A stretch of DNA of 64,000 bases. It comes from Myxococcota bacterium. GTDB lineage: Bacteria; Myxococcota_A; UBA9160; UBA4427. Made by a program: the position numbers and the translations under genes. The notes beneath the pieces are model-generated. The model was not told where the DNA came from. It did no database searches and saw only the letters and a program-made list of their open reading frames with translations. Below are positions 2 through 63,980 of this stretch, in pieces. The stretch is taken from NCBI GenBank assembly GCA_965250285.1, contig OZ252299.1, positions 5,248,001 to 5,312,000 of the forward strand, written 5' to 3'. Every line of letters begins with the position of its first letter. Position 1 is the stretch's first letter.

Positions 2-667
2 CGAGCGCAAGCCTCGTATCCCCCGGCGCAGGAGGGGGAGCCCCTCGGCCCGCGGTGGACGATGCGGTTTCGCAACCCGAGCACCGAGCCCGCGATGCTC
101 GATGCGCTTCGCGCGGAGCGACCCGAGAGCGGCTTCGCCGAGCGCATCGAGAAGCTGCTCGCGCAGCTGCGCGCGACGGGTGCCGACGTCCAGGTCGAAT
201 CGACCGTTCGTCTGCGCCAGCGCGGCTACTTGATGTGGGGCGCGTTCGTGCTCTCTCGAAGCAACGGCGAGAAACAGATCGAAGCGCAGATCGCGCATCT
301 CGAGCGGCGCCGTAGAGAATGGAGCCTCGGCGACGTGACGATCCGCTGGCGTCATCCTCTCGGTCCGCGGGCCACGAAGGCCGCGGCCATCGAGATGGCC
401 GACACCTACGCCGTCGTGTACGCGACCGAAGAAGGCGCACGCAACTCGCGCCACTACGGTGGTCGCGCAATCGACTTCACGGCCGTGGGGCTCCCGCGCA
501 GCTTCGTTCTCACCGCACCGAACGGCCAGCGGCGTCGCTTCGACCTATCCGACCCTTCCGAGACGCGTGATCTCAGCTTGACGCCTCGGCTGGTGCGCTG
601 GATCGAGGAGGCGTTCGGGTTGTCGAAGCTGACTTCGGATTATCCGCACTGGGATGATCGGGGATAG
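2..667 (+). CDS. M15-family zinc metallopeptidase-like protein (D-Ala-D-Ala / L-Ala-D-Glu peptidase fold), probably 5'-truncated by the window edge
   Basis: SRHYGGRAIDF matches the SxHxxGxAxD motif and the C-terminal DYPHW matches D/ExxH. The frame is open from position 2, upstream of the ATG at 62. Confidence 0.6.
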   Translation, partial: RAQASYPPAQEGEPLGPRWTMRFRNPSTEPAMLDALRAERPESGFAERIEKLLAQLRATGADVQVESTVRLRQRGYLMWGAFVLSRSNGEKQIEAQIAHLERRRREWSLGDVTIRWRHPLGPRATKAAAIEMADTYAVVYATEEGARNSRHYGGRAIDFTAVGLPRSFVLTAPNGQRRRFDLSDPSETRDLSLTPRLVRWIEEAFGLSKLTSDYPHWDDRG

Positions 668-691
668 GTAGGCGTGGGCTGGGTGCTCGGG

Positions 692-827
692 TCGGCTTTT
701 CGGGGGTGTCGTCCTCAGATTCCGGCTCGCTGGCTTTACGGGGACGGGGTGTTTTCGCTCGGAGCGGTCGGGGGAGCTGGTGTTGGCGCTCGCCTCCAAC
801 TTGCGGGCGCCACCCCCGAAAAGCCGA
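692..827 (+). repeat. Structured hairpin repeat family A, copy 1
   Basis: TCGGCTTTTCGGGGGTGTCG-TCCTCAGA ... CAACTTGCGGG-CGCCACCCCCGAAAAGCCGA; terminal inverted arms; homologous to 6 other copies in the window. Confidence 0.9.
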
Positions 828-900
828 ACGAACCGGCTCCAGTTCGCGAGGGAGAGGGGTCGAAGGCGCGTCGCGCTCATTGGGCGCGCCTTGCGGGGGA

Positions 901-2199
901 TCAGTCGGTCGGGGGGATGATCGGGGGGGTGAGGAGCGGGGATCTCAGCAGGCCGGCTTCGACGGCCTGGCGAACGGCCTTCGTGTCGGCGAGGGGGCCG
1001 GGGATCGGGGCTCTTCGCCGGGCGAACTGCTGGGCGTTGTCGGTGTAGAAGGTGCGGTGCGCTTCCATCGATGCCCAGGCGCTCGGGATCGAGGCCAGAG
1101 AGAGCGTGATCGTCGAGAGCAGGACGAGGGCCGATCGGTTGCGGCTGGGCTTCAGGCCGTGCGCCTGAAGGAAGGCGACGAAGGTGAGCGCCATCAAGAG
1201 ATGCGAGTACACCCGGTACCGCGAGTCGAAGGCCTGGTCGAGGCCGAAGCCGAACCGCGTAAGCGCGACCGAAGCGAGGGTGAGCAGCACGAAGGTCATC
1301 GCCGCGAACACGCGCGGGTCGCGCCGCCATGTCGAGCCGAGCGCGATCACGACGTAGGCGACGCCGAGACCCCAGCCCGCGAAGCGCGCGAGCCAGCCGA
1401 CCCACGCGTCATCGAACGACACGCCGCCGCCGACGAGCGTGCAGAGATAGTCGAAGGCGGCGACCGGCGACGCGAACGCAGCGAACGGGCTCGGGTGGTG
1501 CTCGGGGCGCGCGTAGTCTGCGAAGTAGAGCGCGATGCATACGAGGGCCCAGACGCCGAATGCGGTCGCCTGCGACCAGGCGCGGGCGTGCAGCAAGAGC
1601 CCGAGGCCGACCGCGAACGTGAAGACGCCGGCCCCCAGGTTCAGGAACGCGAGGGTCGCGAAGAGCGCACCCAGCGCCGTGCGCAGCGGTGTCGGCTTCG
1701 AGAGGCATTCGATCGAGATCAGCGCGCAGAGCAGCATCGGATAGTGCTGGGCTGCGCCGGTCGCCCAGGTCGCAGCCTGCCAGTGCTGCAGCGTGAAGAG
1801 CAGCACGAAGATCGGCGCGGCCGCAAACACACGGTCGGCTCGCGCGCCCGCCGGCAGCCAGCTCGCAACGAGCGCGGCGACGCCGATCAGGCAGGCATTG
1901 CCGAGCCACATCACCGCGCGCAGGTCGAGGTGCCCCGCCGTCGCCGTCACGCCCGCGAAGAACGCCCGCGCCGTGAATGGCCGGTGCTCGTTGTGCAGCG
2001 CGAGCCAGCCCTGGCCGTCGTGGCCGAGCAAGAACCGTACGAAATCGACGTCGTCTTCGACCGGGACGTCGATCGCGAAGAGCCCGAGCGCGACGAAGTA
2101 GAACACGACGGCGGCGAGCGCGACGCAGAAGGCGATGCCGGCGAGCACCTCGCCGTGCCGCGAGGGGGCCTCGTCGACGGCCGGTGCGGGCTGCGTCAT
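901..2199 (-). CDS. Polytopic membrane protein, putative GT-C-type glycosyltransferase
   Basis: Many TM segments; acidic DD motif in the first loop (DVPVEDDVDF) followed by HNEHR; ATG at 2199. Confidence 0.55.
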   Translation of the reverse strand: MTQPAPAVDEAPSRHGEVLAGIAFCVALAAVVFYFVALGLFAIDVPVEDDVDFVRFLLGHDGQGWLALHNEHRPFTARAFFAGVTATAGHLDLRAVMWLGNACLIGVAALVASWLPAGARADRVFAAAPIFVLLFTLQHWQAATWATGAAQHYPMLLCALISIECLSKPTPLRTALGALFATLAFLNLGAGVFTFAVGLGLLLHARAWSQATAFGVWALVCIALYFADYARPEHHPSPFAAFASPVAAFDYLCTLVGGGVSFDDAWVGWLARFAGWGLGVAYVVIALGSTWRRDPRVFAAMTFVLLTLASVALTRFGFGLDQAFDSRYRVYSHLLMALTFVAFLQAHGLKPSRNRSALVLLSTITLSLASIPSAWASMEAHRTFYTDNAQQFARRRAPIPGPLADTKAVRQAVEAGLLRSPLLTPPIIPPTD

Positions 2200-5995: not shown

Positions 5996-7579
5996 TTGAC
6001 GCGAGCGAACGCCATCGAGCTCTTGCAAGCCTGGCAAGCCGAGCACGGACACGTCGACGAACCCGCGCTGCGTGAGATCGCGCGCACGCATCTGATTCCG
6101 CTCTACGAGCTGCAGGGGCTCGTCTCGTTCTATCCCCACTTTCGTTCGACGTCGCCGCCCGATGTCGAGATCGCCGTGTGTCGCGACCTGAGCTGTGCGA
6201 TGCGCGGGGCCGACGCCCTGCGCGGGCGGCTCGAGGCGGCCGCAGCCAAGAGCGATTCGAGCGTCGAGCTGCATTCGGTCTCGTGCCTCGGTCGCTGCGA
6301 TGCGGCGCCGGCCTGTCTGCTCGGTGACGAGCCCGTCGGTCTCGACGCCGTGGCTTCGGCGCTCGGTCTCGCGGCCGACAGCCTCGCCGAGTTCGACGTC
6401 GCGATGCCCTCGACGCCCGACGACGGCTTTGCGAGCGACCCCTACGCAGACGTCTCCGAGCGCTACGGGGGCCTGCGCGCGCTCGCGGCCTCGGGTGACA
6501 CGGCTGCGCTGATCGATCGCATCGAGGCGAGCGGTCTGCGCGGCATGGGAGGGGCGGGCTTCTCGACCGGCTCGAAGTGGCGCTTCGTGGCCGAGGCCGA
6601 AGTGAAAGCCGGCGAAAAGACGGCGATCTGCAACGCCGACGAGAGCGAGCCCGGCACGTTCAAGGATCGTGAGATCCTCGCCCGCCTGCCGCATCTCGTC
6701 GTCGAGGGTCTCGCGCTCGGCGGGCTCTGCGTCGGGGCCGAGCGCGGCATCGTGTTCGTCCGCCACGAGTACGCGCCCGAAACGCGCGCTCTGCGCGGCG
6801 AGCTCGAGCGAGCGCGTGCTTTGGGTGCCATCGGGCCCGACGTCTTCGGCAGCGGACGCGCGTTCGAGGTCGATGTCTTCGTCTCGCCCGGCGGATACAT
6901 CCTCGGTGAAGAGACGGCGCTGCTCGAAGCGCTCGAGGGGCGCCGCGGTGAACCGCGCAACAAGCCCCCCTTCCCGGGCATCGAGGGCTTGCGGGGTGCG
7001 CCCACGCTCATCAACAACGTCGAGACGCTCTGCGCCGTTCCGCGCATCGCCCACGGCGCCTCGGCCGATCTCAAGTTCTTCAGCGTGAGCGGTGACGTGG
7101 AGCGTCCAGGCGTGCACGAGGTGCCCCTCGGTACGCCGCTCAGCGCCCTGATCGAGCGCTGCGGAGGGCTGCGTGAAGGCCGGTCGCTGCTCGCGTTCCT
7201 GCCCGGTGGCGCCAGCACCGGGTTTCTCGGTGCCGAGCACGTCGACCTGCCGCTCGACTGGGATCCGCTCCGCGAGGCCGGCTCGGCGCTCGGCAGCGGC
7301 GCGGTGATCGTCGTGGCCGAAGGCGCCGACCTGCGCGCACTCGCGGGCAACCTGACGGCGTTCTTTCGCAACGAGTCGTGTGGCAAGTGCGTGCCGTGTC
7401 GCATCGGCACCGAGCGAGCGGTGAAGATGATCGAGGACGACGGTCCACTCGACGCGACGCGGCTGCGCGCCCTGGCCGAGCTGCTCGCCGACACGTCGAT
7501 CTGCGGCCTCGGGCAGGCCGCGCTGAACCCGATCACGAGCGTTCTCGAGCGCTTCGATGTCGGCGGGGCATCGTCATGA
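5996..7579 (+). CDS. NAD-dependent formate dehydrogenase diaphorase subunit (NuoE+NuoF fusion)
   Basis: N-terminal [2Fe-2S] motifs CRDLSC...CLGRC; SGLRGMGGAGF, NADESEPGTFKD, YILGEETALL and ESCGKCVPCR...SICGLG; TTG start after GAGGAG. Confidence 0.9.
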   Translation: MTRANAIELLQAWQAEHGHVDEPALREIARTHLIPLYELQGLVSFYPHFRSTSPPDVEIAVCRDLSCAMRGADALRGRLEAAAAKSDSSVELHSVSCLGRCDAAPACLLGDEPVGLDAVASALGLAADSLAEFDVAMPSTPDDGFASDPYADVSERYGGLRALAASGDTAALIDRIEASGLRGMGGAGFSTGSKWRFVAEAEVKAGEKTAICNADESEPGTFKDREILARLPHLVVEGLALGGLCVGAERGIVFVRHEYAPETRALRGELERARALGAIGPDVFGSGRAFEVDVFVSPGGYILGEETALLEALEGRRGEPRNKPPFPGIEGLRGAPTLINNVETLCAVPRIAHGASADLKFFSVSGDVERPGVHEVPLGTPLSALIERCGGLREGRSLLAFLPGGASTGFLGAEHVDLPLDWDPLREAGSALGSGAVIVVAEGADLRALAGNLTAFFRNESCGKCVPCRIGTERAVKMIEDDGPLDATRLRALAELLADTSICGLGQAALNPITSVLERFDVGGASS

Positions 7580-10392
7580 GCGCGACCGAACCGATTCACG
7601 TGCGTGCGCCGGTCACCCTCGAGATCGACGGGCGGTCGGTCACGGTCGAAGCGGGGACGTCGCTCTACGACGCGATCGTGCAGTCGGGGGGCGACGTGCC
7701 GGTGCTCTGCCACGACCCCAAGCTGCGGCCGGTCGGCGTGTGTCGCGTATGCTCGGTCGAGGTCGAAGGAGCACGCACCCTGGTGGCTTCGTGCGTGCGT
7801 GATGCCGAGCCGGGCATGGTCGTGCGCACGCAGAGCGAGCGCGTGCGCCGCGCGCAGACGGGTCTGGTCGAGCTGCTCATGGCCGAGCAGCTCGAAGCGT
7901 CGCGCCGCGAAACCGAGACGGGCGACGACCTGCTCTTCGATCTCGCGCGCGCACTCGACGTCGATGCAGCGCCGCGGTCCACGCGCGCGCGCCCGGTCGA
8001 CGATTCGTCACCGGTGATCCACGTCGATCACCAGGCCTGCATCCTGTGCGATCGCTGCATTCGAGCCTGCGACGAGGTGCAGTGCAATCACGTGATCGGG
8101 CGAACGGGCAAGGGGGGCAGCGCGCGAATCGCCTTCGATCTCGATCAGCCGATGGGCGAGTCGACGTGCGTGAGCTGCGGCGAGTGCGCGGCGGCCTGCC
8201 CGACGGGCGCGCTCGTCGATCAGGGCCTGCAGGCGCCCCTTCGGCCGCGTGAGGTGCTCGAGCCGGTCGACTCGGTCTGCCCGTACTGCGGAGTTGGGTG
8301 CGCGGTGCGATACCACGTCGATCGCGACGCCAACCAGGTCGTCTTCGCCGAAGGCCGAAGCGAGCGTGGCAATCAGGGTCGGCTCTGCGTGAAGGGGCGC
8401 TACGGCTGGGACTACTCCGGCCACGCGCATCGCCTCACGAAGCCGCTGATCCGCGTCGACTACCCGAAGCGTGCGCTGTCGACCGAGGTGCAGGGGGCGC
8501 AGCGGAGGCGCGGCAAGCCGGGCGGCGTCGTCGACTACGACGAGGTGATGCCGGCCTTTCGCGAAGCCAGCTGGGAAGAGGCGCTCGATCTCGTAGCGGC
8601 TCGGCTCGGCGCGATTCGCGACACCGACGGCCCGTCGGCGCTCGCGGGCTTCGGTTCGGCCAAGTGCAGCAACGAAGAGGCGTATCTCTTCCAGAAGCTG
8701 GTGCGCGTCGGCTTCGGCACGAACAACGTCGATCACTGCACGCGGCTATGCCACGCCTCGAGCGTGGCTGCGCTGCTCGAGATGATCGGCTCGGGTGCCG
8801 TCACGACGAGCTACGGCGACGTCGTCAATGCCGAGCTGGCGCTCGTCACTGGCAGCAACGCGAGCGCGAACCATCCGGTCGCTGCGACGTTCTTCAAGCA
8901 GGCGGCGGCCGCGGGCACCAAGCTTCTGATCGTCGACCCTCGCTGGACGCCCCTTTGCGACCACGCCTGGCGCTTCTGCCAGATTCGATCGGGCACCGAT
9001 GTCGCCTTCTACAACGCGATGATGCACGTGATCATCGAAGAGGGTCTCGTCGACGAGGCGTACGTTCGCGCGCACACGCGCGACTTCGAGCGCGTCGCCG
9101 AGAACGTGCGCGACGTGACACCCGAGCGCGCAGCGGCGATCTGCGGCGTGCCTGCCGAGACGATCCGCGAGGTCGCTCTCGAGTACGGCCGCGCGAAGGG
9201 GGCGATCACGTACTGGGGCATGGGCATGAGCCAGCACGTGCACGGCACCGACAACTGCCGCTGCATCATCTCGCTCGCCTTGATGACGGGTAATATCGGT
9301 CGCCACGGCGCGGGGCTGCACCCTCTGCGCGGACAGAACAACGTGCAGGGGGCAAGCGACGCGGGCCTGATCCCGATGGTCTTCCCCGACTATCAGCGCG
9401 TCGACGACGCCGAGGTGCGCGCGAAATTCGAGGCGGCGTGGGGCGTCGAGCTCGATGGCGAGCCGGGGTTGACCGTCGTCGAGATCATGAAGGCGGCCGG
9501 GCGGGGCGAGATCAAGGGCATGTACATGCTCGGCGAGAACCCGTTTCTCAGCGATCCCGACACGAACGCGGTGCGCAAGGCCCTCGCGAGCCTCGACTTC
9601 CTCGTGGTGCAGGACATCTTTCTCACCGAGACGGCCGAGTTCGCCGACGTCGTGCTGCCGGCCACGAGCCAGCTCGAGAAGTCGGGCACGTACACGAACA
9701 CCGATCGGCGCGTGCAGCTCGGTCGCCCCGTCGTCACGCCGCCCGGCGAGGCGCGCCTCGACTGGCAGATCATCCAACAGCTCTCGACCCGGCTCGGCTA
9801 CGCCATGGCGTACGAATCGACCGAGCAGATCTTCGACGAGATGACCGCGCTCACGCACGCGTACCAGGGTCTCTCCCACGACCTGCTGGGCGCCGACGGC
9901 AAGCTCTACCCCTGCGACGATCCCGAGCACGAAGAGGGCACCGAGGTCATGTTCGGCGACGGCTTCCCCACCGAGGACGGGCGCGCGCGCTTCGTGCCCG
10001 CCGTGCACGCGGGCGCCGACGAGCTGCCCGACGCGCAGTACCCGTTCGTGCTCGTGACGGGTCGTGTGCTCGAGCACTGGCATACTGGTGTGATGACCCG
10101 CCGGGCCAAGGCCCTCGCGGCCATCGAGCCCGAGGCGTTCGCCGACCTGAACGAAGACGATGCGGCTCGCCTCGGGGTCGCGACCGGCGACTGGGTGCGC
10201 ATCGCGTCGCGTCGCGGTGAGATTCGACTCGCTGCGCGGGTGGGGACGAGCGTGCAGCCGGGCTCGGTCTTCGTGCCGTTCCACTTTCGCGAGGCCGCGG
10301 CGAATCTGTTGACGAATCCGCGGCTGGATCCGGATGGGAAGATTCCGGAGTTCAAGTTTGCGGCGGTGACGGTGGAGGCGGATCGGGGGTGA
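7576..10392 (+). CDS. fdhF: Formate dehydrogenase alpha subunit (Mo/W-bis-PGD, Cys ligand)
   Basis: N-terminal 2Fe-2S and 4Fe-4S domains; CPYCGVGC, RLCVKG, DHCTRLCHAS and LRGQNNVQG; C-terminal PEFK; ATGA overlap with the upstream gene. Confidence 0.92.
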   Translation: MSATEPIHVRAPVTLEIDGRSVTVEAGTSLYDAIVQSGGDVPVLCHDPKLRPVGVCRVCSVEVEGARTLVASCVRDAEPGMVVRTQSERVRRAQTGLVELLMAEQLEASRRETETGDDLLFDLARALDVDAAPRSTRARPVDDSSPVIHVDHQACILCDRCIRACDEVQCNHVIGRTGKGGSARIAFDLDQPMGESTCVSCGECAAACPTGALVDQGLQAPLRPREVLEPVDSVCPYCGVGCAVRYHVDRDANQVVFAEGRSERGNQGRLCVKGRYGWDYSGHAHRLTKPLIRVDYPKRALSTEVQGAQRRRGKPGGVVDYDEVMPAFREASWEEALDLVAARLGAIRDTDGPSALAGFGSAKCSNEEAYLFQKLVRVGFGTNNVDHCTRLCHASSVAALLEMIGSGAVTTSYGDVVNAELALVTGSNASANHPVAATFFKQAAAAGTKLLIVDPRWTPLCDHAWRFCQIRSGTDVAFYNAMMHVIIEEGLVDEAYVRAHTRDFERVAENVRDVTPERAAAICGVPAETIREVALEYGRAKGAITYWGMGMSQHVHGTDNCRCIISLALMTGNIGRHGAGLHPLRGQNNVQGASDAGLIPMVFPDYQRVDDAEVRAKFEAAWGVELDGEPGLTVVEIMKAAGRGEIKGMYMLGENPFLSDPDTNAVRKALASLDFLVVQDIFLTETAEFADVVLPATSQLEKSGTYTNTDRRVQLGRPVVTPPGEARLDWQIIQQLSTRLGYAMAYESTEQIFDEMTALTHAYQGLSHDLLGADGKLYPCDDPEHEEGTEVMFGDGFPTEDGRARFVPAVHAGADELPDAQYPFVLVTGRVLEHWHTGVMTRRAKALAAIEPEAFADLNEDDAARLGVATGDWVRIASRRGEIRLAARVGTSVQPGSVFVPFHFREAAANLLTNPRLDPDGKIPEFKFAAVTVEADRG

Positions 10393-10403
10393 GTGGCCGG
10401 GGG

Positions 10404-10536
10404 TTCGCATTCTGGGGGCGGCGTCCTCAGACTGCGTCGGGCCCGCCTTGCCGCGTTGAATCGATGTCGCCGGAGGCGCCGCGTCTTGCTCGGGCTGGCC
10501 CGACTTCGATTGCGGGCGCCGCCCCCAGAATGCGAA
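10404..10536 (+). repeat. Structured hairpin repeat family A, copy 2
   Basis: TTCGCATTCTGGGGGCGGCG-TCCTCAGA ... TTCGATTGCGGG-CGCCGCCCCCAGAATGCGAA. Confidence 0.9.
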
Positions 10537-10606
10537 GTCGGATCGCCTCGGTCGCAACGCATCGTTGGCGCAGACTCGAGGCTCCTTTGGATGGGGTAAA
10601 GGGGCG

Positions 10607-11878
10607 CTAGAAGCGGTCGAGGTGCCAGGTGGCGGAGAGGAGGCCGAGGCGGAAGGTGGGGCAGTCGGTCGGGCCGGGGAGGGTGAGGCTCGTCGTTCGC
10701 TCGCCCTCGGCCGGGATGTCGGCGACGTCGACGGCGGCACCGGTCTCGCCGCAGTCGATCTCGATCGTGGCCGTGGCGACGGCGCGCGGCGCGCGGTTGC
10801 CGATGGTCACATCGAACTCGAGACGTTCGCCGCCGTGGTTCACGCCCCGCGCTTTGAGGTCGAGCCAGGGGCGAATGTCGTGTCGCCGATCGCCGGGGCT
10901 CGGGTCGAGGTGGATCCGCTTTCGATCGTGATCGATCTCGACGCGGAACTGGCTCGAGACGTTCAGGCCGAGCAGCCCCGACCGGCCGGGCGCCGTGCAC
11001 GAAGGGCACGCCGCCACCGTCACCCACTCGACCGGCGCGTCGCCGAGCCAGACGGCGTCGAGCAGCACGAGCGGCGCGTCGATCGGGCCGCCAGCCGTGT
11101 TGAGGGTCACCCGCGGCGCATTGCGCGGCACGTCGACGTCGATCTCGGCCAGGGCGTCGGGCGTCACCGTGGTGAACGAGGCGCCCGTATCGAAGATCAT
11201 GCGGAACCGGTCGCCGAAGTCGGGCCCATCCAGAGCGACCTCGACATCGAGCTCGCGGCCGTCGCCTCGGTAGGCCAGCACGACGGGCGCGGTCGGTGCG
11301 GGATCGGGGCGCGCGACCGGGGTGCGGGTCGAGGGGCGGGGCGCCGTCTCGTCGGGCTGCGGCTTCGAAGCGGAGGGTGACGTCGCGGCCTGGGGCGTGG
11401 CGATCGCGAGCGGCTCGGGGGGCTTCTCGCCCTCGGCGCCGAGCCAGCTGGCCAGGGTGCCGACGAAGCTCCCGGCCGGCTCACGCAGCGGGCCGAGGTG
11501 CGCCGCGAAGAGCACGTCGGCGCCGCGGCGCGCCGCTTCACGGCGCTCGCCGGGGGCGAAGCCCGGCACGGTCAGGAGGAGGGCGATTGTCCAGATCCAG
11601 GCCGAGAGGACTCGGGCGACCCGGCGGCCGGCGTCCGATGAGCCGGCGCCGATCGCGCGAAACCCCGATGCGAGCCCGACGACCGGCAACAGCGCCACCG
11701 CGAGCGCCGCGGTGAGGGCGAGCGACGTCGATGCCCCCGTTTGCAGCCCGAGGCCCAGCAGTACGCAGGTCGCGACGCCAAGGGGTACCCCGAGAACCAC
11801 GGCCTCGACCGCGACGTCGAAGGCACGGATGGGACGCGGTGAGCGAGTGGATCCGAGCCGACTCATGGGACGGTGCAT
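10607..11878 (-). CDS. Membrane-anchored retropepsin-like (clan AA) aspartic protease
   Basis: IFDTGAS catalytic motif, TAGG flap and GLLGLN; N-terminal TM helices and a Pro-rich linker; start uncertain. Confidence 0.8.
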   Translation of the reverse strand: MHRPMSRLGSTRSPRPIRAFDVAVEAVVLGVPLGVATCVLLGLGLQTGASTSLALTAALAVALLPVVGLASGFRAIGAGSSDAGRRVARVLSAWIWTIALLLTVPGFAPGERREAARRGADVLFAAHLGPLREPAGSFVGTLASWLGAEGEKPPEPLAIATPQAATSPSASKPQPDETAPRPSTRTPVARPDPAPTAPVVLAYRGDGRELDVEVALDGPDFGDRFRMIFDTGASFTTVTPDALAEIDVDVPRNAPRVTLNTAGGPIDAPLVLLDAVWLGDAPVEWVTVAACPSCTAPGRSGLLGLNVSSQFRVEIDHDRKRIHLDPSPGDRRHDIRPWLDLKARGVNHGGERLEFDVTIGNRAPRAVATATIEIDCGETGAAVDVADIPAEGERTTSLTLPGPTDCPTFRLGLLSATWHLDRF

Positions 11879-12045
11879 CTCCCTCGCGCGGTCGCTGTCT
11901 CGCGTGCTGGCTCCGGCGCTCGCTGCCGGGCCGGCGCCGGGCCCGCTCGCTCACCCGATCAGCCGGATCGTGGGGCGACGACCGGTCCTTCATGGATGCT
12001 GCCCTCGAACGTATCGTTCCGGCACCCTGCTAACATCCCGCGATC

Positions 12046-12924
12046 ATGCGTAGCCGGACCGACCGACTCCGACAGCGCTCCCTCGTCATCCTGGTCACGC
12101 TGCTGGTTTCGGCCCAGACCGGGTGCTCGCTCATCATGGGGCGGGTCACTTCGGGCGTGGCCGACAGCCTGACGGTGGCCGTGCTGGCCCAGGATGATCC
12201 CGAGCTCGTGCGCGATGGTGCTCCTGCGTACCTGATCGCGCTCGATGGCTTGATCGAGGGAGATCCCGACAACCTCGACCTGCTGATGAGCGGCGCGAGC
12301 CTCTACGGCTCGTATGCCGGCGCGTTCGTCGAAGATCCCGAGCGGGCCGCGCGGCTGGCGACGCGCGCTCGCGGCTACGGCGACCGCGCGATCTGCGTGC
12401 GCAAGAAAGAGTTCTGCGGGCTCTCGGAGAAACCCTTCGACGAGTTCGTCCTCGCGCTCGATGACGTGAAAGAGAAGGATCTGCCCGCGCTCTACAGCTA
12501 CGGCAGCGCCTGGGCGGGCTGGATCCAGGCGAACTCGGCCGACTGGGCCGCCATCGCCGACCTGCCCAAGGTGCAGGCCGTCATGGAGAAAGTGGTCGAG
12601 CTCGACCCCGAGATCGAGGACGGCCAGGCGTGGATGTACCTCGGCGTGCTCTACACGCTGCGCCCCGCCTCGCTCGGTGGCAAGCCCGAGAAGGGCCGGG
12701 AGGCCTTCGAGCGCGCACTCGTCGTCTCGAACCGGCGTAATCTCTTCGTCCATGTGATGTACGCCAAGCAGTACGCCCGGCTCGTCTTCGACCAGGAGCT
12801 GCACGACGCGCTGCTCACCGAAGCGCTCGAGGCCGATCCGGTCGAGCCCGATCTCACGCTCATCAATACGATTGCCCAGCAGCAGGCGGCCGACCTGCTC
12901 GAAGACGGCAAGGACTACTTCTGA
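12046..12924 (+). CDS. tatT: TRAP transporter T-component lipoprotein (TatT)
   Basis: Lipobox-like QTGC, DDPELVRDGAPAYL, PASLGGKPE and YARLVFDQELHD; first gene of a dctPQM operon. Confidence 0.85.
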   Translation: MRSRTDRLRQRSLVILVTLLVSAQTGCSLIMGRVTSGVADSLTVAVLAQDDPELVRDGAPAYLIALDGLIEGDPDNLDLLMSGASLYGSYAGAFVEDPERAARLATRARGYGDRAICVRKKEFCGLSEKPFDEFVLALDDVKEKDLPALYSYGSAWAGWIQANSADWAAIADLPKVQAVMEKVVELDPEIEDGQAWMYLGVLYTLRPASLGGKPEKGREAFERALVVSNRRNLFVHVMYAKQYARLVFDQELHDALLTEALEADPVEPDLTLINTIAQQQAADLLEDGKDYF

Positions 12925-20256: not shown

Positions 20257-20344
20257 GGGTGGCGCCTCCGGTTCTGGAAGCGCCCACCGTTAGCTCAACT
20301 CCGGATCGCGCGTCCACTTGAGGGAGCGGGGTGGGTTGCACGGG

Positions 20345-20476
20345 CGCGTTTTCGGGGGTGGCGTCCTCAGACTCCGGCGGGCCGGCCTTGCGGGCGGCGT
20401 TCTTTGGGGGGGCCATCGTGAGATGAGAGACTGGCTGGCCCGCCTTCGACTTGCGGGCGCCACCCCCGAAAACGCG
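20345..20476 (+). repeat. Structured hairpin repeat family A, copy 3
   Basis: CGCGTTTTCGGGGGTGGCG-TCCTCAGA ... TTCGACTTGCGGG-CGCCACCCCCGAAAACGCG. Confidence 0.9.
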
Positions 20477-20673: not shown

Positions 20674-20808
20674 TCGGGTTTTCGGGGGTGGCGCCCGCAA
20701 GTTGGAGGCGAGCGCCACCCCCACCCCGGCGCCCGCCCCGAGCACAAACGAAGGGCCGCCGCACAGCCCGCGAGCCGGAATCTGAGGACGACACCCCCGA
20801 AAACCCGA
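20674..20808 (-). repeat. Structured hairpin repeat family A, copy 4 (inverted)
   Basis: The + strand reads CCCGCAAGTTGGA ... TCTGAGGA-CGACACCCCCGAAAACCCGA, the reverse complement of the copy 1 type. Confidence 0.9.
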
Positions 20809-20934
20809 CCCCAGCACCCGCCCCCACAATCTCCACACACCGCCTCGTCCCGCCCCCACCCGCCCCCCGACCGTTCCGGTACGATTGCCCCCGACAGGCT
20901 CTCTTCCCCCCCCTGTGCGACCGCCGGAGCCACC

Positions 20935-23181
20935 ATGGAACCCGTCCCCCCGCCGATCCCGCTCAAGCCGCGGGCGGTGCGTACCGAAAACGTCGAAATG
21001 TCCTCTCGCAGCGCAAAGGACGCCCAGGTCGACTCGCCCGAGCCGGGTGAAGAGGACGGGCTCGACCTCAGCTCGCCCGAGCTCTACCTGAACCGCGAGT
21101 TCACGTGGATCGACTTCAACGGCCGCGTGCTGTCGCTGGCCAAGAACGAGCGGACGCCTCTGCTCGAGCGGCTGAAGTTTCTCGCCATCGTCGGCTCGAA
21201 CTTCGACGAGTTCTTCATGAAGCGCGTGGGTGTGCTGGGGCAGCAGGTGAGCGCCGGTGTGCGCGACCTCAGCTTCGACGGTCGGACGCCCCTCGAGCAG
21301 GTCGTCGAGTGTGCCTCGCGCTATCGGCTGCTGCTGCCGGTGCAAGAAGCCGTGCGGCGCGAGATCGTCGATGCGCTGCAGGATCACGCCATTCACGTCG
21401 TCGCCTATGACGATCTCGAAGAAGCCGAGCGCGAGAAGGTTCGCGACTCGTACGTCGAGAACATCTACCCGCTGGTGACGCCCCAGGCGATGGATCCGGC
21501 GCATCCCTTTCCGTTCGTCTCGAATCTCTCGCTCAATCTGCTCGTCGCGCTGCGCCATCCGAAGGACAACGTGCGCGTGCGCGCACGCGTGAAGGTGCCG
21601 GTCGGGCCGGGCATTCCGCGCTTCCTGCGCGTCGCCGAAGAAGAAGACCGATTCGTGCCCCTCGAAGAGGTGATGGCCGCAAACCTCGACCTGCTCTTTC
21701 CGGGGATGGACATCGAGGCCAGTGATCTCTTTCGTGTGACCCGCAACGTCGCCGTGGAGCGCGAAGAAGAAGGGGCCGAAGACCTGCTCGCCCTCATCGA
21801 GAGCGAGCTGCTCGAGCGTCGTTTCGCCGACATCGTCCGGCTCGAGGTCGACGCCACGATGTCCGATGCGCACCGCAAGCTGCTCGCCGACGAGTTCGAG
21901 CTCGACCCCGAACGCGGGGTCTTCGAGGTGGAGGGCATGCTCGGGCTGCGTGATTTGATGCAGATCGCCAGCATCGACCAAGCCGAGCTTCACGACCCGC
22001 CGCATCGTCCGCTCGATCATCCCGAGCTGATCAGCGACCGCCCGATCTTCGACATCGTGCGCGACCGAGGCAGCATCTTCGTCGCACATCCGTATCAGTC
22101 GTTCTCGAGCTCGGTCGAGCGCTTTCTCAAGGAGGCGAGCACCGACCCGCAGGTGTACGCCATCAAGATGACCGTGTACCGCACGAGCGAAGATTCGCAC
22201 GTCATCGATCATCTGATCGAGGCTGCTCGCCGGGGCAAGCAGGTCGCGGTGGTCGTCGAGCTCAAGGCCCGCTTCGACGAAGAGGCCAACATTCGCTGGG
22301 CCAATCGGCTCGAGCAGTTCGGCATTCACGTGACGTACGGCGTGATGGGCGTGAAGACGCACTGCAAGGTGATCCTCGCCGTGCGGCGCGATCGCGATGG
22401 GCTGCGCCGCTACGTGCACCTCGGCACGGGCAACTACCACGCTCAGAATGCGCGCATCTACTCGGACGTCGGCCTGCTCACGTGCGATCCCGAGATCGGG
22501 GCCGACGCGACCGAGCTCTTCAACTACCTGACGACCGGCTACAAGCCGAAGCGGCGCTACGCGAAGCTGCTCGTGGCGCCGAGCTACATGAAGCCCGGCC
22601 TGATCGAGATGATCGACCGCGAGATCGAGATTCAGCGAACTGGCGGCGAGGGCCTGATCCAGATCAAGGTCAACGCGCTCGAGCACCCCGCGCTCGCCGA
22701 AGCGCTCTACCGTGCATCGAGCGCCGGCGTTCAGGTCGACCTCATCGTTCGCGATACCTGCCGGGTGCGACCCGGGCTGCCCGGGATCTCCGAGTCGATG
22801 CGTGTCGTCTCGCTCGTCGGACGCTTCCTCGAGCACGCGCGCATCTTCCACTTCGGCAACGGCGGCGACCCGGTCTACTACATCGGCTCGGCCGATCTGA
22901 TGTCGCGCAACCTCGACGCGCGGGTCGAGCAGCTCGTGCCGATCGAGCACGACGAGGGCCGCGAGTACCTGCGCTTCATGCTCGACGCCCAGCTCGAGGA
23001 CGACTTCAACGCCTGGGACATGCGCGCCGACGGGACCTACCAGCATCGCCGCCCCACGGATCCCGACGAGCCCAGAGACAGCCACCACGCCCAGATCGAG
23101 CGGGCCGAGCGCGACTACCGGGGGGCCACGCGGCTGCGGCGCCGAAAGCCGTCGGGTGTCGCGAAGCGACTCGCCGACTGA
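20935..23181 (+). CDS. ppk1: Polyphosphate kinase 1
   Basis: YLNREFTWIDFN.RVL, DPAHPFPFVSNLSLN, ELKARFDEEANI, KTHCK, HLGTGNYH and GRFLEH; start 20935 or 20998. Confidence 0.95.
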   Translation: MEPVPPPIPLKPRAVRTENVEMSSRSAKDAQVDSPEPGEEDGLDLSSPELYLNREFTWIDFNGRVLSLAKNERTPLLERLKFLAIVGSNFDEFFMKRVGVLGQQVSAGVRDLSFDGRTPLEQVVECASRYRLLLPVQEAVRREIVDALQDHAIHVVAYDDLEEAEREKVRDSYVENIYPLVTPQAMDPAHPFPFVSNLSLNLLVALRHPKDNVRVRARVKVPVGPGIPRFLRVAEEEDRFVPLEEVMAANLDLLFPGMDIEASDLFRVTRNVAVEREEEGAEDLLALIESELLERRFADIVRLEVDATMSDAHRKLLADEFELDPERGVFEVEGMLGLRDLMQIASIDQAELHDPPHRPLDHPELISDRPIFDIVRDRGSIFVAHPYQSFSSSVERFLKEASTDPQVYAIKMTVYRTSEDSHVIDHLIEAARRGKQVAVVVELKARFDEEANIRWANRLEQFGIHVTYGVMGVKTHCKVILAVRRDRDGLRRYVHLGTGNYHAQNARIYSDVGLLTCDPEIGADATELFNYLTTGYKPKRRYAKLLVAPSYMKPGLIEMIDREIEIQRTGGEGLIQIKVNALEHPALAEALYRASSAGVQVDLIVRDTCRVRPGLPGISESMRVVSLVGRFLEHARIFHFGNGGDPVYYIGSADLMSRNLDARVEQLVPIEHDEGREYLRFMLDAQLEDDFNAWDMRADGTYQHRRPTDPDEPRDSHHAQIERAERDYRGATRLRRRKPSGVAKRLAD

Positions 23182-27533: not shown

Positions 27534-28136
27534 GTGGATCCGATCGACGCCATCGACCAGTCCCTCGACGAGGCGGCTCGCGCGCTCGCTGCGCTGCGGA
27601 GCGACGCCGTGGCGCGCGCTGCGATCGGTCGGTTCGTCGAGCGTGCACATGCGACGCTCGCGTCGGGGCACCGGATCTTCAGCTGCGGCAACGGCGGCAG
27701 CATGTGCGATGCCATGCACTTCGCCCAGGAGTGGACGGGCCGGTTCAGAGCCGACCGATCACCCTGGCCGGCGATGGCCTTCTCGGACGCCGGCCTGCTA
27801 ACGGGCGTCGCGAACGACTACGGCTACGAAGAGGTCTTCGCCCGGGCGATCGAGGGCCACGCGCGCGCAGGCGATCTGCTGCTCGTTCTGTCGACCAGCG
27901 GCGACTCGCAGAATCTGGTTCGGGCCGTCGAGCGCGCGCGTCAGCTCGGCATCGAGTCGGTCGCTCTGCTCGGCCGGGGCGGTGGCAAGCTCGCCGGTCT
28001 CGCCGATCTGTCGATCGTGGTGCCCGAAGCGCGCACGGCCGACCGGGTGCAGGAAGTGCACATCAAGGTGCTGCATGCGGTGATCGAGGCCGTGGAGCGG
28101 CGGCTGGCGGCTGAGGTGGACGCGGCAGGGGCGTAG
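27534..28136 (+). CDS. gmhA: D-sedoheptulose-7-phosphate isomerase
   Basis: CGNGGSMCDAMHFA, NDYGYEEVF, STSGDS and DRVQEVHI. Confidence 0.9.
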   Translation: MDPIDAIDQSLDEAARALAALRSDAVARAAIGRFVERAHATLASGHRIFSCGNGGSMCDAMHFAQEWTGRFRADRSPWPAMAFSDAGLLTGVANDYGYEEVFARAIEGHARAGDLLLVLSTSGDSQNLVRAVERARQLGIESVALLGRGGGKLAGLADLSIVVPEARTADRVQEVHIKVLHAVIEAVERRLAAEVDAAGA

Positions 28137-28149
28137 TGGGGTGCTCGGG

Positions 28150-28282
28150 TTCGCATTCTGGGGGCGGCGTCCTCAGACTGCGTCGGGCCGGCTTTGCGGT
28201 GTTGGGGCGTCTCCGCTCCGTGCGATGGGTCCTGCCTGGAATGGCCCGACTTCGATTGCGGGCGCCGCCCCCAGAATGCGAA
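28150..28282 (+). repeat. Structured hairpin repeat family A, copy 5
   Basis: Arms identical to copy 2 (TTCGCATTCTGGGGGCGGCG / CGCCGCCCCCAGAATGCGAA). Confidence 0.9.
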
Positions 28283-28363
28283 GGCGGGCGGACCGGCTCG
28301 CGGCCGCGATCGTGCCCCTGTCACAGTGCCCCGGACGATGCGCACGGGCGTGAGTCTGTCCGA

Positions 28364-29068
28364 CTACTCGGAGAGAGGGGGAGGGGGGGTGTTCGTCGCT
28401 CTTCGGCTTCGCGCTCTTCGGATCGCCCAGGTGCGGTAGCCGATGAAGAGGGCGACCGAGGCTGCGGCGAGGGCGAGCCAGGCTTCGGGGGGGACGTCGC
28501 CGGCGGCTTCGAGTCCTTCGACGGCGGCGGCGCCGATGGCGATCTGGATCATGGTCGTGATCGCGAGCATCACGATGCTCACGCCGAGGTAGAGGATCGG
28601 GGAGACGTTCGACATCGCGATGAAGACGTCGACGAGCGGGTTCGCCCAGAGCAACGCACGCAGGATCAGAAGCGTCGTCAGGGGCCGCCGCTCCATCCGC
28701 GCTTCGAAGCGGCGGATCCGCGGCGGCACGCGCTCCTGCACGGCGTCGTGACCGAACACCCACGCGAGCGCGTAGGCGAGGAAGCTGCCGCCGAGCGTGA
28801 TCACCAACCCGAACGCATAGGCCAAAGGCAGGTTGAAGAGGCTGGGCGCTGCCCAGACCGCCGGGCCGTTCAGGAACACGAAGTGGGCGAGGGTGCCGGC
28901 GGTCAGGTAGGCGAGGGGCTTCAGCTCACCCGAGTTCTCGATCATCTCGACGAATCGATCGGGCTCTGCGAAGAGGGCTCCCAGATCGAGCGCGAAGTAG
29001 AGAACCGCCCCCGCGACGTTGAGGGCGACGAAGAGCACGATGATTTGCCAGCGGCCGCCCTTCGGCAT
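28364..29068 (-). CDS. DedA/TVP38 (VTT-domain) membrane protein
   Basis: Hydrophobic pattern, GSFLAYALAWVFG and LLILRA. Confidence 0.7.
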   Translation of the reverse strand: MPKGGRWQIIVLFVALNVAGAVLYFALDLGALFAEPDRFVEMIENSGELKPLAYLTAGTLAHFVFLNGPAVWAAPSLFNLPLAYAFGLVITLGGSFLAYALAWVFGHDAVQERVPPRIRRFEARMERRPLTTLLILRALLWANPLVDVFIAMSNVSPILYLGVSIVMLAITTMIQIAIGAAAVEGLEAAGDVPPEAWLALAAASVALFIGYRTWAIRRARSRRATNTPPPPLSE

Positions 29069-30806: not shown

Positions 30807-30849
30807 GCCGCGCGCCCCGAGAGAATCGACGCCGCGCCCTGGGGATGCG

Positions 30850-30902
30850 CTGCAGAACTCGCTCCCCGCATGCGAGCGCTGCGCTGTAGCGGAAGCGTCC
30901 CG
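30850..30902 (+). repeat. Short structured repeat family B, copy 1
   Basis: CTGCAGAACTCGCTCCCCGCATGCGAGCGCTGCGCTGTAGCGGAAGCGTCCCG; 51/53 identical to 35464-35516. Confidence 0.85.
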
Positions 30903-35456: not shown

Positions 35457-35463
35457 CGAGGCT

Positions 35464-35516
35464 CTGCAGAACTCGCTCCACGCATGCGAGCGCTGCGCTG
35501 TAGTGGAAGCGTCCCG
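35464..35516 (+). repeat. Short structured repeat family B, copy 2
   Basis: Near-identical to 30850-30902. Confidence 0.85.
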
Positions 35517-35694
35517 AGGCCGGGGCAGGCGGGGGGACCGCGCGCAGTTCGCAGGCGCGACGTGCGCGACAAACGAGCTTCCCAGGCCGGTCGCGCCGAG
35601 AATGTCTGAGCACGGTGCCCCCGCCTGCCCCGGCCCTGGCAAGGCAGACCGTGCAGACGTTTCCGAGCCAGTCGGCGCGACGACGCGCCGGGCC

Positions 35695-46510: not shown

Positions 46511-47308
46511 ATGTCCGCCGTCCTCGTCGACGTCCAGAACCACGTCATGACCGTGACGTTGAACCGACCCGAGAAGAAGAACGCCGTCAACTGCGAGGTG
46601 ATGTGCCGGCTCTTCGACGCGTGGAAGCGCGTCGATGAAGACGACGACGTGCGCGCTGCGATCCTGACCGGCAACGGCGACACGTTCTGCGCGGGCATGG
46701 ATCTGTCCGAGATCCCCAAGCTCTCGAGTGGCAAGCCCGACAGCGAGTGGATGGAGCGAGTCATGAAGGAGCCCGAGGTCATCTACGGCGCATGGCTCAA
46801 GACCTACCGGCCGACCAAACCGATTCTGCTCGCCGCCGAGGGCTTTGCGCGCGCGGGCGGCACCGAGATCCTGCAGGGCACCGACATTCGCGTCGCCGGC
46901 GAGAGCGCGATGTTCGGTGTGACCGAGGTGCAGCGCGGCCTCTTTCCGATGGCCGGCTCGGCCGTTCGGCTGCGTCGACAGATCCCCTACGCGATCGCAG
47001 CCGAGATGCTGCTCGCGGGTGAAGACCTGCCGGCCAGGCGCGCCTACGAGCTCGGTCTCGTCAATCACATCGTGCCCGACGGGCAGGCGGTCGCGAAGGC
47101 GAACGAGATCGCGACCCGCATCGCCGAGAACGGCCCGCTCGCCGTGAAGGGCATCCTCGCCACCCTGCGCGCGACCGAGACGATGCCCGAAGAAGAGGCC
47201 TTCGTGATCGAGCAGCAGCACGGCATGAAGGTGATGTCGTCGAAGGATGCGGTGGAGGGGCCGCGGGCGTTCCTCGAGAAGCGGAAGCCGGAGTTCACGG
47301 GGGCGTGA
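46511..47308 (+). CDS. Enoyl-CoA hydratase/crotonase
   Basis: LNRPEKKNA, FCAGMDL, AGGTE, EVQRGL and EGPRAFLEKRKPEF. Confidence 0.9.
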   Translation: MSAVLVDVQNHVMTVTLNRPEKKNAVNCEVMCRLFDAWKRVDEDDDVRAAILTGNGDTFCAGMDLSEIPKLSSGKPDSEWMERVMKEPEVIYGAWLKTYRPTKPILLAAEGFARAGGTEILQGTDIRVAGESAMFGVTEVQRGLFPMAGSAVRLRRQIPYAIAAEMLLAGEDLPARRAYELGLVNHIVPDGQAVAKANEIATRIAENGPLAVKGILATLRATETMPEEEAFVIEQQHGMKVMSSKDAVEGPRAFLEKRKPEFTGA

Positions 47309-47328
47309 GGTTCGGGGGTTGCACGGGC

Positions 47329-47461
47329 CGGCTTTTCGGGGGTGTCGTCCTCGGATTCCGGCTCGCTGGCTTTACGGGCCCCAGGCGCTTTCGCTTGCCT
47401 TGAGGCGCCGGGGTGTTTTGGCGCTCGCCTCCAACCTGCGGGCGCCACCCCCGAAAAGCCG
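47329..47461 (+). repeat. Structured hairpin repeat family A, copy 6
   Basis: CGGCTTTTCGGGGGTGTCG-TCCTCGGA ... CCAACCTGCGGG-CGCCACCCCCGAAAAGCCG; closest to copy 1. Confidence 0.9.
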
Positions 47462-47622
47462 AGGGCGTGGCTCGGGTGGGGTTTCGACCCGGCCGCGGGC
47501 TTCGCTCGCTTGGGTCGTTGAATCATCATTGAATCTGAGGTGCGGGCGGGCTGCGGAGGGCGCAGATCCCCGTGGGCGTGGGCGCTTGCTCGCTTTGGGC
47601 GGGGTTCGGTGACGCCCCAACC

Positions 47623-62594: not shown

Positions 62595-62748
62595 GGCTCA
62601 AGGGCTCCCGGTGGCAGAGCCATGATACATTGCGGTGCACCCGCCGATCTCGTGTGATGCGCCGCGCGGGGCGTGGTGCGGGCGCGGTGCGGGCGTGGTG
62701 AGCGCGGCCAGCGCGAGTGTGATGTGCGCGTGACGCGCGAGACAGAGG

Positions 62749-63843
62749 ATGCCGTCGACGATGACCCAGCGCCGTCCCTTGCGTCGCGATGCCGAGACCG
62801 GTCGCGTCGAGATCCTCGATCAGACCCGACTGCCCCACGAGGTCGTGTGGGTCGAGCTCGGAGATCTGGCTTCGGCCGCCGAGGCGATCCGTTCGATGCA
62901 GGTTCGGGGCGCACCGTTGATCGGTGCGGTCGCCGCTTACGGGATCGCGCTGGCCCTCGATGCCGACGCGAGCGACGCAGCGCTGGCCGAGGCGACGGCG
63001 ACCTTGCAGGCGACGCGCCCGACCGCCGTCAATCTCGCCTGGGCGCTCGATCAGGCGAACCAGGCGGTGGCCGACGTGGCGCCCGATGCGCGCGCCGGCG
63101 TCGCGTACGCGCTCGCCGATCGGATCTGCGATGACGAGGGTGCGCGCTGCGCAGCGATCGGGCGGCATGGCGTCGAGCTGATTCGAAAGGTGGCCGAGAG
63201 CCGATCGGCGGGGCCGGTGCACGTGCTGACCCATTGCAACGCGGGCATGCTCGCGACGTTCGACTACGGCACGGCGCTGGCCCCGATCTACATGGCCTTC
63301 GAGGAAGGCATCGACGTTCATGTCTGGGTCGACGAGACGCGGCCGCTCGATCAGGGCAGTCGACTCACGGCGTGGGAGCTGGCCGACGCGGGCGTTGCGC
63401 ACACGGTCATCGTCGACAACGCGGGCGGGCACCTGATGCAGCACGGACAGGTCGATCTGTGCATCGTCGGCAGCGATCGCACCACGGCCCACGGCGACGT
63501 CTGCAACAAGGTCGGCACCTACCTGAAGGCGCTGGCCGCGTTCGACAACGGCGTGCCCTTCTATGCCGCACTCCCGACGAGCACGATCGACTGGTCGATG
63601 AAGGACGGGGTCGCCGAGATCCCGATCGAGGAGCGCGCACCCGACGAGGTGCGCGACAGCGTCGGCGTCGACGAGGCCGGCGAGCTGCATCGGGTTCGGC
63701 GCTTCGCTGCATCGACGCCGGTCGCGAACTACGCGTTCGACGTGACGCCGGCGCGGCTGGTGACGGGGTTGATTACCGAGCACGGGGTTGTGGGGGCTTC
63801 GGCCGCGGGGGTGCGGGGGTTGCGGGAGCGGGGGCTTAGCTAG
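62749..63843 (+). CDS. mtnA: S-methyl-5-thioribose-1-phosphate isomerase
   Basis: ILDQTRLP, MQVRGAPLIG, TRPTAVNL, LTHCNAG, DETRP, NKVGTY and AFDVTP; start 62749 or 62761. Confidence 0.93.
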   Translation: MPSTMTQRRPLRRDAETGRVEILDQTRLPHEVVWVELGDLASAAEAIRSMQVRGAPLIGAVAAYGIALALDADASDAALAEATATLQATRPTAVNLAWALDQANQAVADVAPDARAGVAYALADRICDDEGARCAAIGRHGVELIRKVAESRSAGPVHVLTHCNAGMLATFDYGTALAPIYMAFEEGIDVHVWVDETRPLDQGSRLTAWELADAGVAHTVIVDNAGGHLMQHGQVDLCIVGSDRTTAHGDVCNKVGTYLKALAAFDNGVPFYAALPTSTIDWSMKDGVAEIPIEERAPDEVRDSVGVDEAGELHRVRRFAASTPVANYAFDVTPARLVTGLITEHGVVGASAAGVRGLRERGLS

Positions 63844-63848
63844 GCCGG

Positions 63849-63980
63849 GTCGCATTTCGGGGGCGTCGTCCTCAGACTGCGGCGTGCCGTTTTTCTTGGG
63901 GCGGGCGGTCTTGCTTGTGCCGTTGGGGGTGGGTCGGGCTGGCACGCCTTCGATTGCGGGCGCCGCCCCCGAAATGCGAC
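63849..63980 (+). repeat. Structured hairpin repeat family A, copy 7
   Basis: GTCGCATTTCGGGGGCGTCG-TCCTCAGA ... TTCGATTGCGGG-CGCCGCCCCCGAAATGCGAC. Confidence 0.9.

Follow-up and report, generated by a model that had tools for sequence, protein, structure and literature searches.

A non-coding hairpin repeat of a Myxococcota bacterium is flanked by synonymous G/T skew that follows its orientation

Correlated excesses of G over C and of T over A on one strand, strongest at third codon positions and with the encoded proteins kept, are the hallmark of GRINS, duplicated coding regions of more than 500 bp (>80% identity) that are tied to gene conversion (PMC8256042). The mechanism was described as unknown and the origin of such skews as an open question, although an error-prone polymerase was suggested and single-copy skewed regions were mentioned; the accessible parts of that paper describe no anchoring element. 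GRINS are the closest known phenomenon to the pattern reported here, which surrounds the copies of a ~145-nt non-coding hairpin, designated repeat A, in a 64,000-nt window (C1:5248001-5312000) of the genome of a Myxococcota bacterium (G000; a single contig of 6.25 Mb, 68.6% GC). On the strand of repeat A, synonymous sites have lost C and A in favour of G and T within a lopsided zone, the halo, that spans ~100 nt on the 5' side of the repeat and ~300 nt on its 3' side. Like GRINS, the halo has GC and TA skews of >0.15 that are strongest at third codon positions. Unlike them, it occupies unique gene ends over 100-300 nt, with only the 145-nt hairpins repeated and no duplication of the kind that defines GRINS, and it is anchored on a non-coding element whose orientation sets its polarity. 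The Minerva preprint, in its accessible part, contains nothing on skew, and a literature search, judged largely from abstracts and with most of the subscription literature outside its scope, found no flanking skew anchored on a hairpin or on an integron attI site.

Repeat A is an imperfect hairpin with a covarying outer stem, a conserved mismatched core, and a variable centre. The final profile recognizes 23 copies in the genome (an earlier profile had 26 hits, among them a self-complement hit and two divergent copies, and a motif pair gave 21), with a mean identity between copies of 64%. Seven of them lie in the window, the interval 5.23-5.32 Mb contains 12, and inverted pairs account for 12 of the 23. 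In an alignment of 26 copies from three species and one further strain, 19 of the 30 pairs of the outer stem carry two-sided (compensatory) changes, one-sided changes are confined to 3 cells, and the mismatched core is invariant; changes that are nearly all two-sided suit a hairpin read as DNA. Most copies are found just 3' of stop codons, at a distance of 8-50 nt, and TAG is the stop codon of 8 of the 14 co-oriented upstream genes versus 1423 of 5136 genes overall. The window has no Rfam match at gathering score. Among the genomes searched, repeat A is confined to the genus: it is present in 2 of 61 relatives, G000 included, whereas 4 of 191 other genomes of the order have weak short matches (34-44 nt). 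A contig search gave 44 matches, of which 8 are the same sequences as loci of the sister genome G001 and the remaining 36 fail the profile; 21 of 38 metagenome loci pass it (19 from one third species and 2 close to G001), as do none of 3 viral loci, and a plasmid search gave no match. Repeat A is a locally spreading DNA hairpin. At C1:5242307-5242547, the 3' end of a - copy contains a partial + copy fused into it, and the neighbouring gene tail is C-rich, following the + copy.

Three families of small mobile or recombining elements share some of these properties. REP elements are 20-40 nt long with a GTAG foot, whereas repeat A is a 145-nt hairpin. It resembles REP and BIME elements in forming intergenic hairpins after genes, inverted doublets, and local clusters, and these elements, too, spread locally and amplify in tandem; their TnpA-REP (RAYT) protein cuts one strand at a distance from the hairpin, leaving a 3'-OH that host polymerases could extend (PMC3333891). 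However, G000 and G001 yielded no Y1/RAYT gene, the selective erosion of CT sites that a C|T cleavage specificity would predict is not seen, and the literature search found no report of flanking skew for REPs. Integron attC sites are single-strand hairpins recognized by structure, with exchange of one strand by IntI, replicative resolution, and a G-rich recombining strand (PMC5027507, PMC8946536). In the 26-copy alignment, repeat A lacks the R'' (RYYYAAC) and R' (GTTRRRY) boxes that are present in the true attC sites of G000, and it follows housekeeping genes outside the 47-attC array; the published skew, moreover, lies inside attC and is a purine skew (PMC5027507). As repeat A fails the attC box test, no claim is made that IntI acts on it. 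Finally, MITEPsy1, a miniature inverted-repeat transposable element (MITE) of the IS5 family, is likewise a small non-autonomous repeat (PMC3189936), and TAG is enriched upstream of repeat A (8 of 14). In contrast, no fixed junction could be recognized in 48 copies of repeat A, TAG lies 8-50 nt from the element, the empty sites are too diverged to read a target duplication such as the CTAG/YTAA of IS5-family MITEs, the arms contain conserved mismatches, IS5-type transposases were not found in G000 or G001, and no halo is mentioned in the accessible part of the MITEPsy1 paper (PMC3189936).

The copies of repeat A in the window, their halos, and a control hairpin of another family (C-main) are as follows.

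581-679, + strand: 5' halo of copy 1, in a gene tail ending at 667; G41/C21; four-fold C4/G12 versus C9/G11 in the element-free G001 orthologue
680-827, + strand: repeat A copy 1, ~145-nt imperfect hairpin
828-1100, + strand: 3' halo of copy 1, entering the convergent gene 901-2199; G123/C70 on the + strand
10293-10400, + strand: 5' halo of copy 2, in the tail of formate dehydrogenase alpha (fdh, 7576-10392); four-fold C2/G20
10401-10537, + strand: repeat A copy 2, profile match
10538-10830, + strand: 3' halo of copy 2, in the tail of the convergent gene 10607-11800 (no NCBIfam hit); coding-strand C22/G4
20331-20476, + strand: repeat A copy 3, half of an inverted pair, without upstream halo (G34/C34)
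20674-20818, - strand: repeat A copy 4, inverted copy
20819-20918, - strand: 5' halo of copy 4, before ppk1 (20935-23181); C57/G16 on the + strand in 100 nt, hence G-rich on the element strand
28039-28138, + strand: 5' halo of copy 5, in the tail of gmhA (27534-28136); four-fold C4/G20
28139-28283, + strand: repeat A copy 5, profile match
28284-28580, + strand: 3' halo of copy 5, entering the convergent gene 28364-29068
35506-35653, - strand: control copy of hairpin family C-main, without halo; upstream G37/C35
47217-47316, + strand: 5' halo of copy 6, in the tail of an enoyl-CoA hydratase gene (46511-47308)
47317-47462, + strand: repeat A copy 6, profile match
63738-63837, + strand: 5' halo of copy 7, in the tail of mtnA (62761-63843); G53/C22, with 6 GGG and 0 GGC codons
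63838-63979, + strand: repeat A copy 7, profile match

An initial annotation of the window had noted G/T-ending codons in the tails of fdh and mtnA, and the codons it quoted are indeed there; the last 40 codons of fdh have C2/G20 at four-fold sites and C4/T8 at two-fold sites. Its observation that the skew flips at the inverted copy 4 was likewise borne out, as was its view that the effect follows the DNA strand and not the coding sense: genome-wide, in the last 30 codons, C occupies 20% of four-fold sites in 14 co-oriented genes (n=245) and 76% in 9 convergent genes (n=174), versus 48% in all gene tails (n=90,584). The statement that every copy has a halo holds for most of them but not for copy 3 nor for three of the seven copies whose G/T strand is the lagging-strand sequence, which are neutral or C-rich and are all members of inverted pairs. 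Of the proposed C>T/C>G shift, the loss of C stands; A is also lost, being roughly halved, and the gain at four-fold sites is of G (nearly doubled in co-oriented genes) and not of T, which is raised only at two-fold sites (29 versus 12). An assembly artefact as the source of the halo is disfavoured by contigs of run X4 (which may itself be the source sample) that are identical to the window over 8500-10430 and 10508-12500, with 0 differences across the two halos that flank copy 2. No more than 5-8% of the words are present in runs X1-X3, and at 80% similarity X1 and X2 yield mostly fdh of other organisms.

With all copies oriented, the skew tracks the element throughout the genome. Across 21 copies, the element-oriented GC skew is +0.40 at -50..0, +0.23 at -100..-50, +0.13 to +0.18 at 0..+150, and ~0 beyond, and TA skew in the 100 nt upstream is +0.30/+0.16. 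In a profile that omits five paired or partial copies, the observed/expected ratio (O/E) of C in successive 20-nt steps upstream of the repeat is 0.25, 0.29, 0.49, 0.45, 0.72, and 0.91; downstream, it is 0.32 at +60 and climbs to 0.96 at +300. The 14 co-oriented tails contain 116 C versus 204 expected after correction for context (0.57), a value reached by none of 100,000 random 14-gene sets drawn from the 5136 genes of our own codon model (minimum 0.78) and by none of 50,000 sets restricted to the leading strand (minimum 0.74). Gene ends without the repeat, the comparison that the initial annotation had called for, thus have no G/T shift. Halos occur in gene heads (the gltX and g660060 orthologues) as well as in tails and in both coding senses.

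The element-free orthologues are ordinary, and at three loci they lean the opposite way, so the halo appears to have been written after the arrival of the repeat. The comparison genome, G001, is from a sister species of the same genus (~60-95% protein identity; 83% complete) and carries repeat A at some sites orthologous to those of G000 and at many others. At 12 gene ends with the repeat in one species only, 84 of 107 informative synonymous differences lead toward G/T, read on the element strand in the species that has the copy, and 23 lead away from it (p 2e-9), with the window length set per locus after inspection of the data and some of the carriers being pairs; in control tails, the differences are symmetric (197 versus 185). 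C>G changes outnumber G>C by 48 to 18, C>T outnumber T>C by 24 to 3, and A>G outnumber G>A by 12 to 2, alongside 11 G>T and 10 T>G changes; on the element strand, 105 base changes are to G or T and 27 to C or A. The g5262579 copies at L089 and L092 were omitted from this count because they are 83% identical, and they are still part of the "G001 only" row of the control/model comparison.

The three loci with the opposite lean are the tails of fdh (C2/G20 in G000 versus C17/G2 and C16/G4 in the two versions from G001; 31 of 40 residues are conserved), of the gene convergent to it (C22/G4 versus C4/G18), and of gmhA (C4/G20 versus C12/G8). Four-fold divergence at these loci is 27/35, versus 592/1471 in control tails (p 1.5e-5), and G001 has inverted pairs of repeat A there. 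Beside paired copies, sequences at 100-200 nt are C-rich (G/C 2/22 and 2/19) and those at 0-100 nt are mixed (8/7 and 5/9), a pattern that may reflect the replacement of an earlier halo by that of a more recent copy in the opposite orientation. The excess local divergence anticipated by the initial annotation was seen in one pair of close strains, L113 and L099, which differ by C/G changes in 3 of the last 8 codons before the repeat versus 3 in the other 123 (p 0.003). The ~490 nt of spacer and gene body contain ~4 differences, and the element itself is heavily diverged throughout, which could reflect conversion from other copies.

In G001, over L089-L100, the order of gene blocks differs from that of G000, the breakpoints coinciding with pairs of repeat A, and the two versions of the fdh tail, identical for at least 141 nt and then divergent, are joined to different neighbours; these arrangements may be due either to element-mediated rearrangement or to a mixture of strains in the bin. 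In L092:6004-6050 and L093, the 5' leader of repeat A supplies the last codons of fdh.

The base spectrum narrows the range of possible error sources. Four-fold sites in the halo have A.02, C.20, G.71, and T.06. In a simple and crude equilibrium model, raising C>T and A>G 3.3-fold brings G to ~0.50, and raising them 10-fold brings T to 0.14-0.18; only the addition of a ~6-fold increase of direct C>G yields the observed G of 0.71-0.75, C of 0.17-0.20, and T of 0.06, and a transition-only (deamination-type) model was rejected on this ground. C is best retained after T (TC, 0.62), which makes an APOBEC-like (TpC) deaminase unlikely. In an indirect test of CT erosion, C before T was kept at 0.19 at four-fold sites, the same as C before C, and at 0.92 at two-fold sites; neither a TpC deaminase nor the erosion of CT sites is supported. 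Kataegis, the work of APOBEC-UNG-REV1, consists of strand-coordinated C>T and C>G clusters near exposed single-stranded DNA; the halo differs from it in lacking TpC preference, in the loss of A as well, and in being bacterial and fixed over evolutionary time. Diversity-generating retroelements and retrons differ in other respects, as G000 and G001 yielded no reverse transcriptase gene, C makes up most of what is lost where those systems change adenine specifically, and the flanks have no template copy.

Among the enzymes that the initial annotation had named as candidates, an APOBEC-like deaminase is unlikely from this spectrum and no HUH nuclease was found in G000 or G001, whereas error-prone polymerases are present: imuA-like, imuB-like, dinB, and dnaE2 genes lie within 9 kb at C1:2799804-2808639 (L178). 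dnaE2 and dinB pass the NCBIfam cut-offs, and imuA and imuB are assigned from weak RecA and Pol IV hits and from position; the imuA/imuB junction had a weak score in a genome-wide scan for halos. In Caulobacter, G:C to C:G transversions depend on imuB and imuC (PMC3901139). The best candidate for the error source would be the ImuA/ImuB/DnaE2 cassette or DinB.

We favour the reading that the hairpin strand has repeatedly been opened and re-made with G/T-biased errors, in tracts mainly on its 3' side and with selection sparing the proteins, and regard it as probable, with considerable room for doubt. A nick or one-strand exchange at the folded hairpin would expose the element strand as single-stranded DNA, which error-prone synthesis would then re-make, leaving G or T in tracts of variable length. 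The G/T rule of the element strand would fit a new strand into which dG/dT had been misinserted as well as an exposed strand whose abasic sites had been paired with dC/dA, two routes that are inseparable from sequence alone. Purifying selection would keep the proteins, so that the damage would be visible at synonymous sites, and the arrival of a copy in the opposite orientation would overwrite the halo the other way. The strand-specific local mutagenesis proposed in the initial annotation is partly supported and survives the three comparisons that could have overturned it (gene ends without the repeat, orientation genome-wide, and orthologues lacking the element); its nicking, strand exposure, and fill-in are retained here as conditional steps.

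A similar footprint appears, on sequence grounds, at integron attI sites. G000 has a sedentary integron at C1:5462873-5489942 (L179), with intI pointing to the array, an attI-like site ~200 nt after intI, and 47 attC sites; intI is present in G000 and partial in G001. Across the 30 intI loci of this family (L148-L177), codon use is bimodal, and its sign follows the side of the attI-like site (called by a loose motif): where the site is upstream of intI, the coding strand is rich in G immediately past it, in a zone that can reach 2.5 kb or beyond, and where it is downstream, the coding strand is C-rich toward it. Both layouts put G/T on the bottom strand, 3' of attI. The four-fold C/(C+G) of intI is 0.17 with the site upstream (5 loci) and 0.70 with it downstream (16 loci); five further loci of the G-rich clade in which no attI was seen have 0.26, and 4 of the 30 loci are ungrouped. 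Outside the family (L196-L222), the values are 0.39 upstream (6 loci) and 0.53 downstream (12 loci; p 0.02), with 9 loci unclassified. Only these levels are compared, because the two layouts are not told apart by how C increases from 5' to 3' along intI. The four-fold spectrum of canonical intI genes (A.03, C.15, G.73, T.085) is close to that of repeat A, and in the canonical clade the G-rich zone extends past intI into the next gene. Strand exchange by IntI is limited to the bottom strand, and resolving the junction requires replication (PMC8946536). The attI-linked skew, flipping between canonical and inverted integrons, is new here. The G000 integron also contains a recurring ~270-nt cassette without an open reading frame, and a cluster of five attC sites is found at C1:109236-111402, near another tyrosine recombinase.

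Besides repeat A, the genome-wide halo scan ranked two other hairpin families and the 3' half of the integron integrase gene. Family B has 3 copies within 6 kb at C1:3267158-3272732 and one at 3457133, with G/T-rich intergenic flanks. Family C (~135 nt, ~38 copies genome-wide, in tandem arrays) includes 3 divergent copies with a halo (C1:5018987, 5019133, and 5420937; O/E 0.45 and 0.58). A similar GGGTGC-type 5' leader is common to families A, B, and C.

Selection in place of mutation is an unlikely explanation but one with several points in its favour. The flanks would be kept G/T-rich on the hairpin strand, and C/A-rich and unstructured on the other, for one-strand folding or binding, an idea already put forward for the skews within attC. 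The element strand folds 1.5-5 kcal/mol better in all four copies tested; at four-fold sites, C gives way to G without a rise in T (13 versus 12.1; 15 versus 14.9), as if C were avoided at constant GC; loci with shared orientation are not significantly more diverged; and attC bottom strands are G-rich and more stable, whether by selection being left open by the authors (PMC5027507). However, such selection would have to cover dozens of synonymous positions at distances of up to 300 nt (more than 2 kb beside some attI sites), on behalf of a repeat whose presence at a site varies between sister species, whereas the close strains diverge fastest exactly beside it, G>T and T>G changes are frequent as well, and the attC skew is one of purines, not of G+T.

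An enzyme-free origin is, if anything, slightly less likely still. Here the hairpin would stall replication or transcription, single-stranded DNA would persist on the better-folding strand, and spontaneous deamination, depurination, and lesion bypass would write the skew; C>T and A>G are known single-strand transitions, and the absence of a nuclease among the families searched in G000 and G001 is in keeping with this. The G/T strand is the leading-strand sequence for 16 of the 23 copies, and their halos are stronger (upstream O/E 0.49 versus 0.68 for the lagging-oriented copies). Yet four of the seven lagging-oriented copies have a clear element-oriented halo (G50/C17, G42/C14, G57/C16, and G44/C23), the halo at the G000 attI opposes the replichore skew, 35 copies of another long hairpin (C-main) have no halo, transitions alone fail to produce the spectrum, and the repeat would still need something to move and duplicate it.

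Selection at the transcript level (Rho loading or mRNA 3' structure), or transcription-coupled damage at gene ends, is suggested by the position of most copies just after stop codons and is very improbable: the bias tracks the DNA strand whichever way the gene is read and is present in gene heads, too, and the halo of fdh reverses while the convergent gene order is unchanged, which contradicts it. Insertion-site preference, in which the repeat would land in gene ends that were already G/T-rich, retains some target bias in the TAG stops but is largely refuted and hardly credible. The orthologues argue strongly against it: those that lack the repeat have an ordinary composition, with the opposite lean in fdh, in gmhA, and in the gene convergent to fdh. 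Gene tails overall are also unshifted.

Several observations nevertheless weigh against error-prone re-making of the hairpin strand, in addition to the locus-wise windows of the gene-end comparison, the loose attI motif, and the crude equilibrium model mentioned above. Shared copies in the same orientation have a four-fold divergence of 39/82 versus 0.40 in controls, which is not significantly raised (p 0.20), and a strong ongoing mutator might be expected to raise it; the excess divergence between strains comes from a single pair, in which the changes of L113 point toward C. Family C-main, whose 35 copies average 83% identity across their alignment, shows no halo (O/E 0.95 and 0.97), and the 4 copies of family B have only a weak synonymous one. 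The ten canonical intI genes of the family form one clade, L196, L219, and L203 contradict the attI-side rule, and the skew of intI1 (L224) and of L223 is no more than mild. DnaE2 is widespread, so that finding it here establishes no link. No candidate nickase was found: searches of G000 and G001 (the latter 83% complete) with PF01797, PF04986, PF01609, PF13751, PF13586, PF01548, PF00078, and NF047646, the other IS families and 498 uncalled open reading frames being outside the search, detected no Y1, Y2, RAYT, IS5-type DDE, IS110, or reverse transcriptase protein. The counts were zero in both genomes for the Y1/HUH model PF01797, for RAYT (NF047646), for each of the IS5-type models (PF01609, PF13751, and PF13586), and for reverse transcriptase (PF00078); the Y1/RAYT controls were matched, and the Y2 control matched nowhere. 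Judged by eye from unassigned open reading frames, no transposase stands beside any copy in the 19 metagenome loci of the third species. Conversely, seven Y1 loci in genomes G002 and G008 come without repeat A and without clear skew.

An intriguing, if tentative, generalization, which we would put at somewhat below an even chance, is that sites of one-strand cutting or exchange, with repeat A and integron attI as examples, act in bacteria as permanent local mutators where error-prone repair puts G/T on the processed strand, recoding essential neighbours in a manner that is reversible when the element flips. Repeat A provides an anchor in cis, a rule for polarity, a scale of length, and natural experiments in which the skew is reversed between orthologous genes. 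attI and IntI offer a model system with a known enzyme and strand chemistry, in which the mutation rate and the polymerase are directly measurable. If the generalization is true, synonymous codon use near such sites would record a mutational process and not translational selection, which would matter for inferences based on synonymous divergence (dS) and for those on integron activity; such mutators would be the missing source of GRINS-type skews, and the codon bias of intI would be a fossil record of recombination frequency.

A few other zones of the genome have comparable composition. Single-copy G/T-rich zones with small palindromes and none of the three repeat families are found at C1:2899219-2899518 and 5015271-5015570 and are perhaps halos with a decayed element. 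Both EF-Tu-like genes (C1:1185764-1186954 and 1202691-1203881) are G-shifted at four-fold sites near their 3' ends, with repeats A, B, and C absent nearby, possibly as a result of expression-linked codon bias. In the window, a 64-nt two-copy repeat that is unrelated to repeat A is located at 30839-30902 and 35453-35516, its copies being 91% identical.

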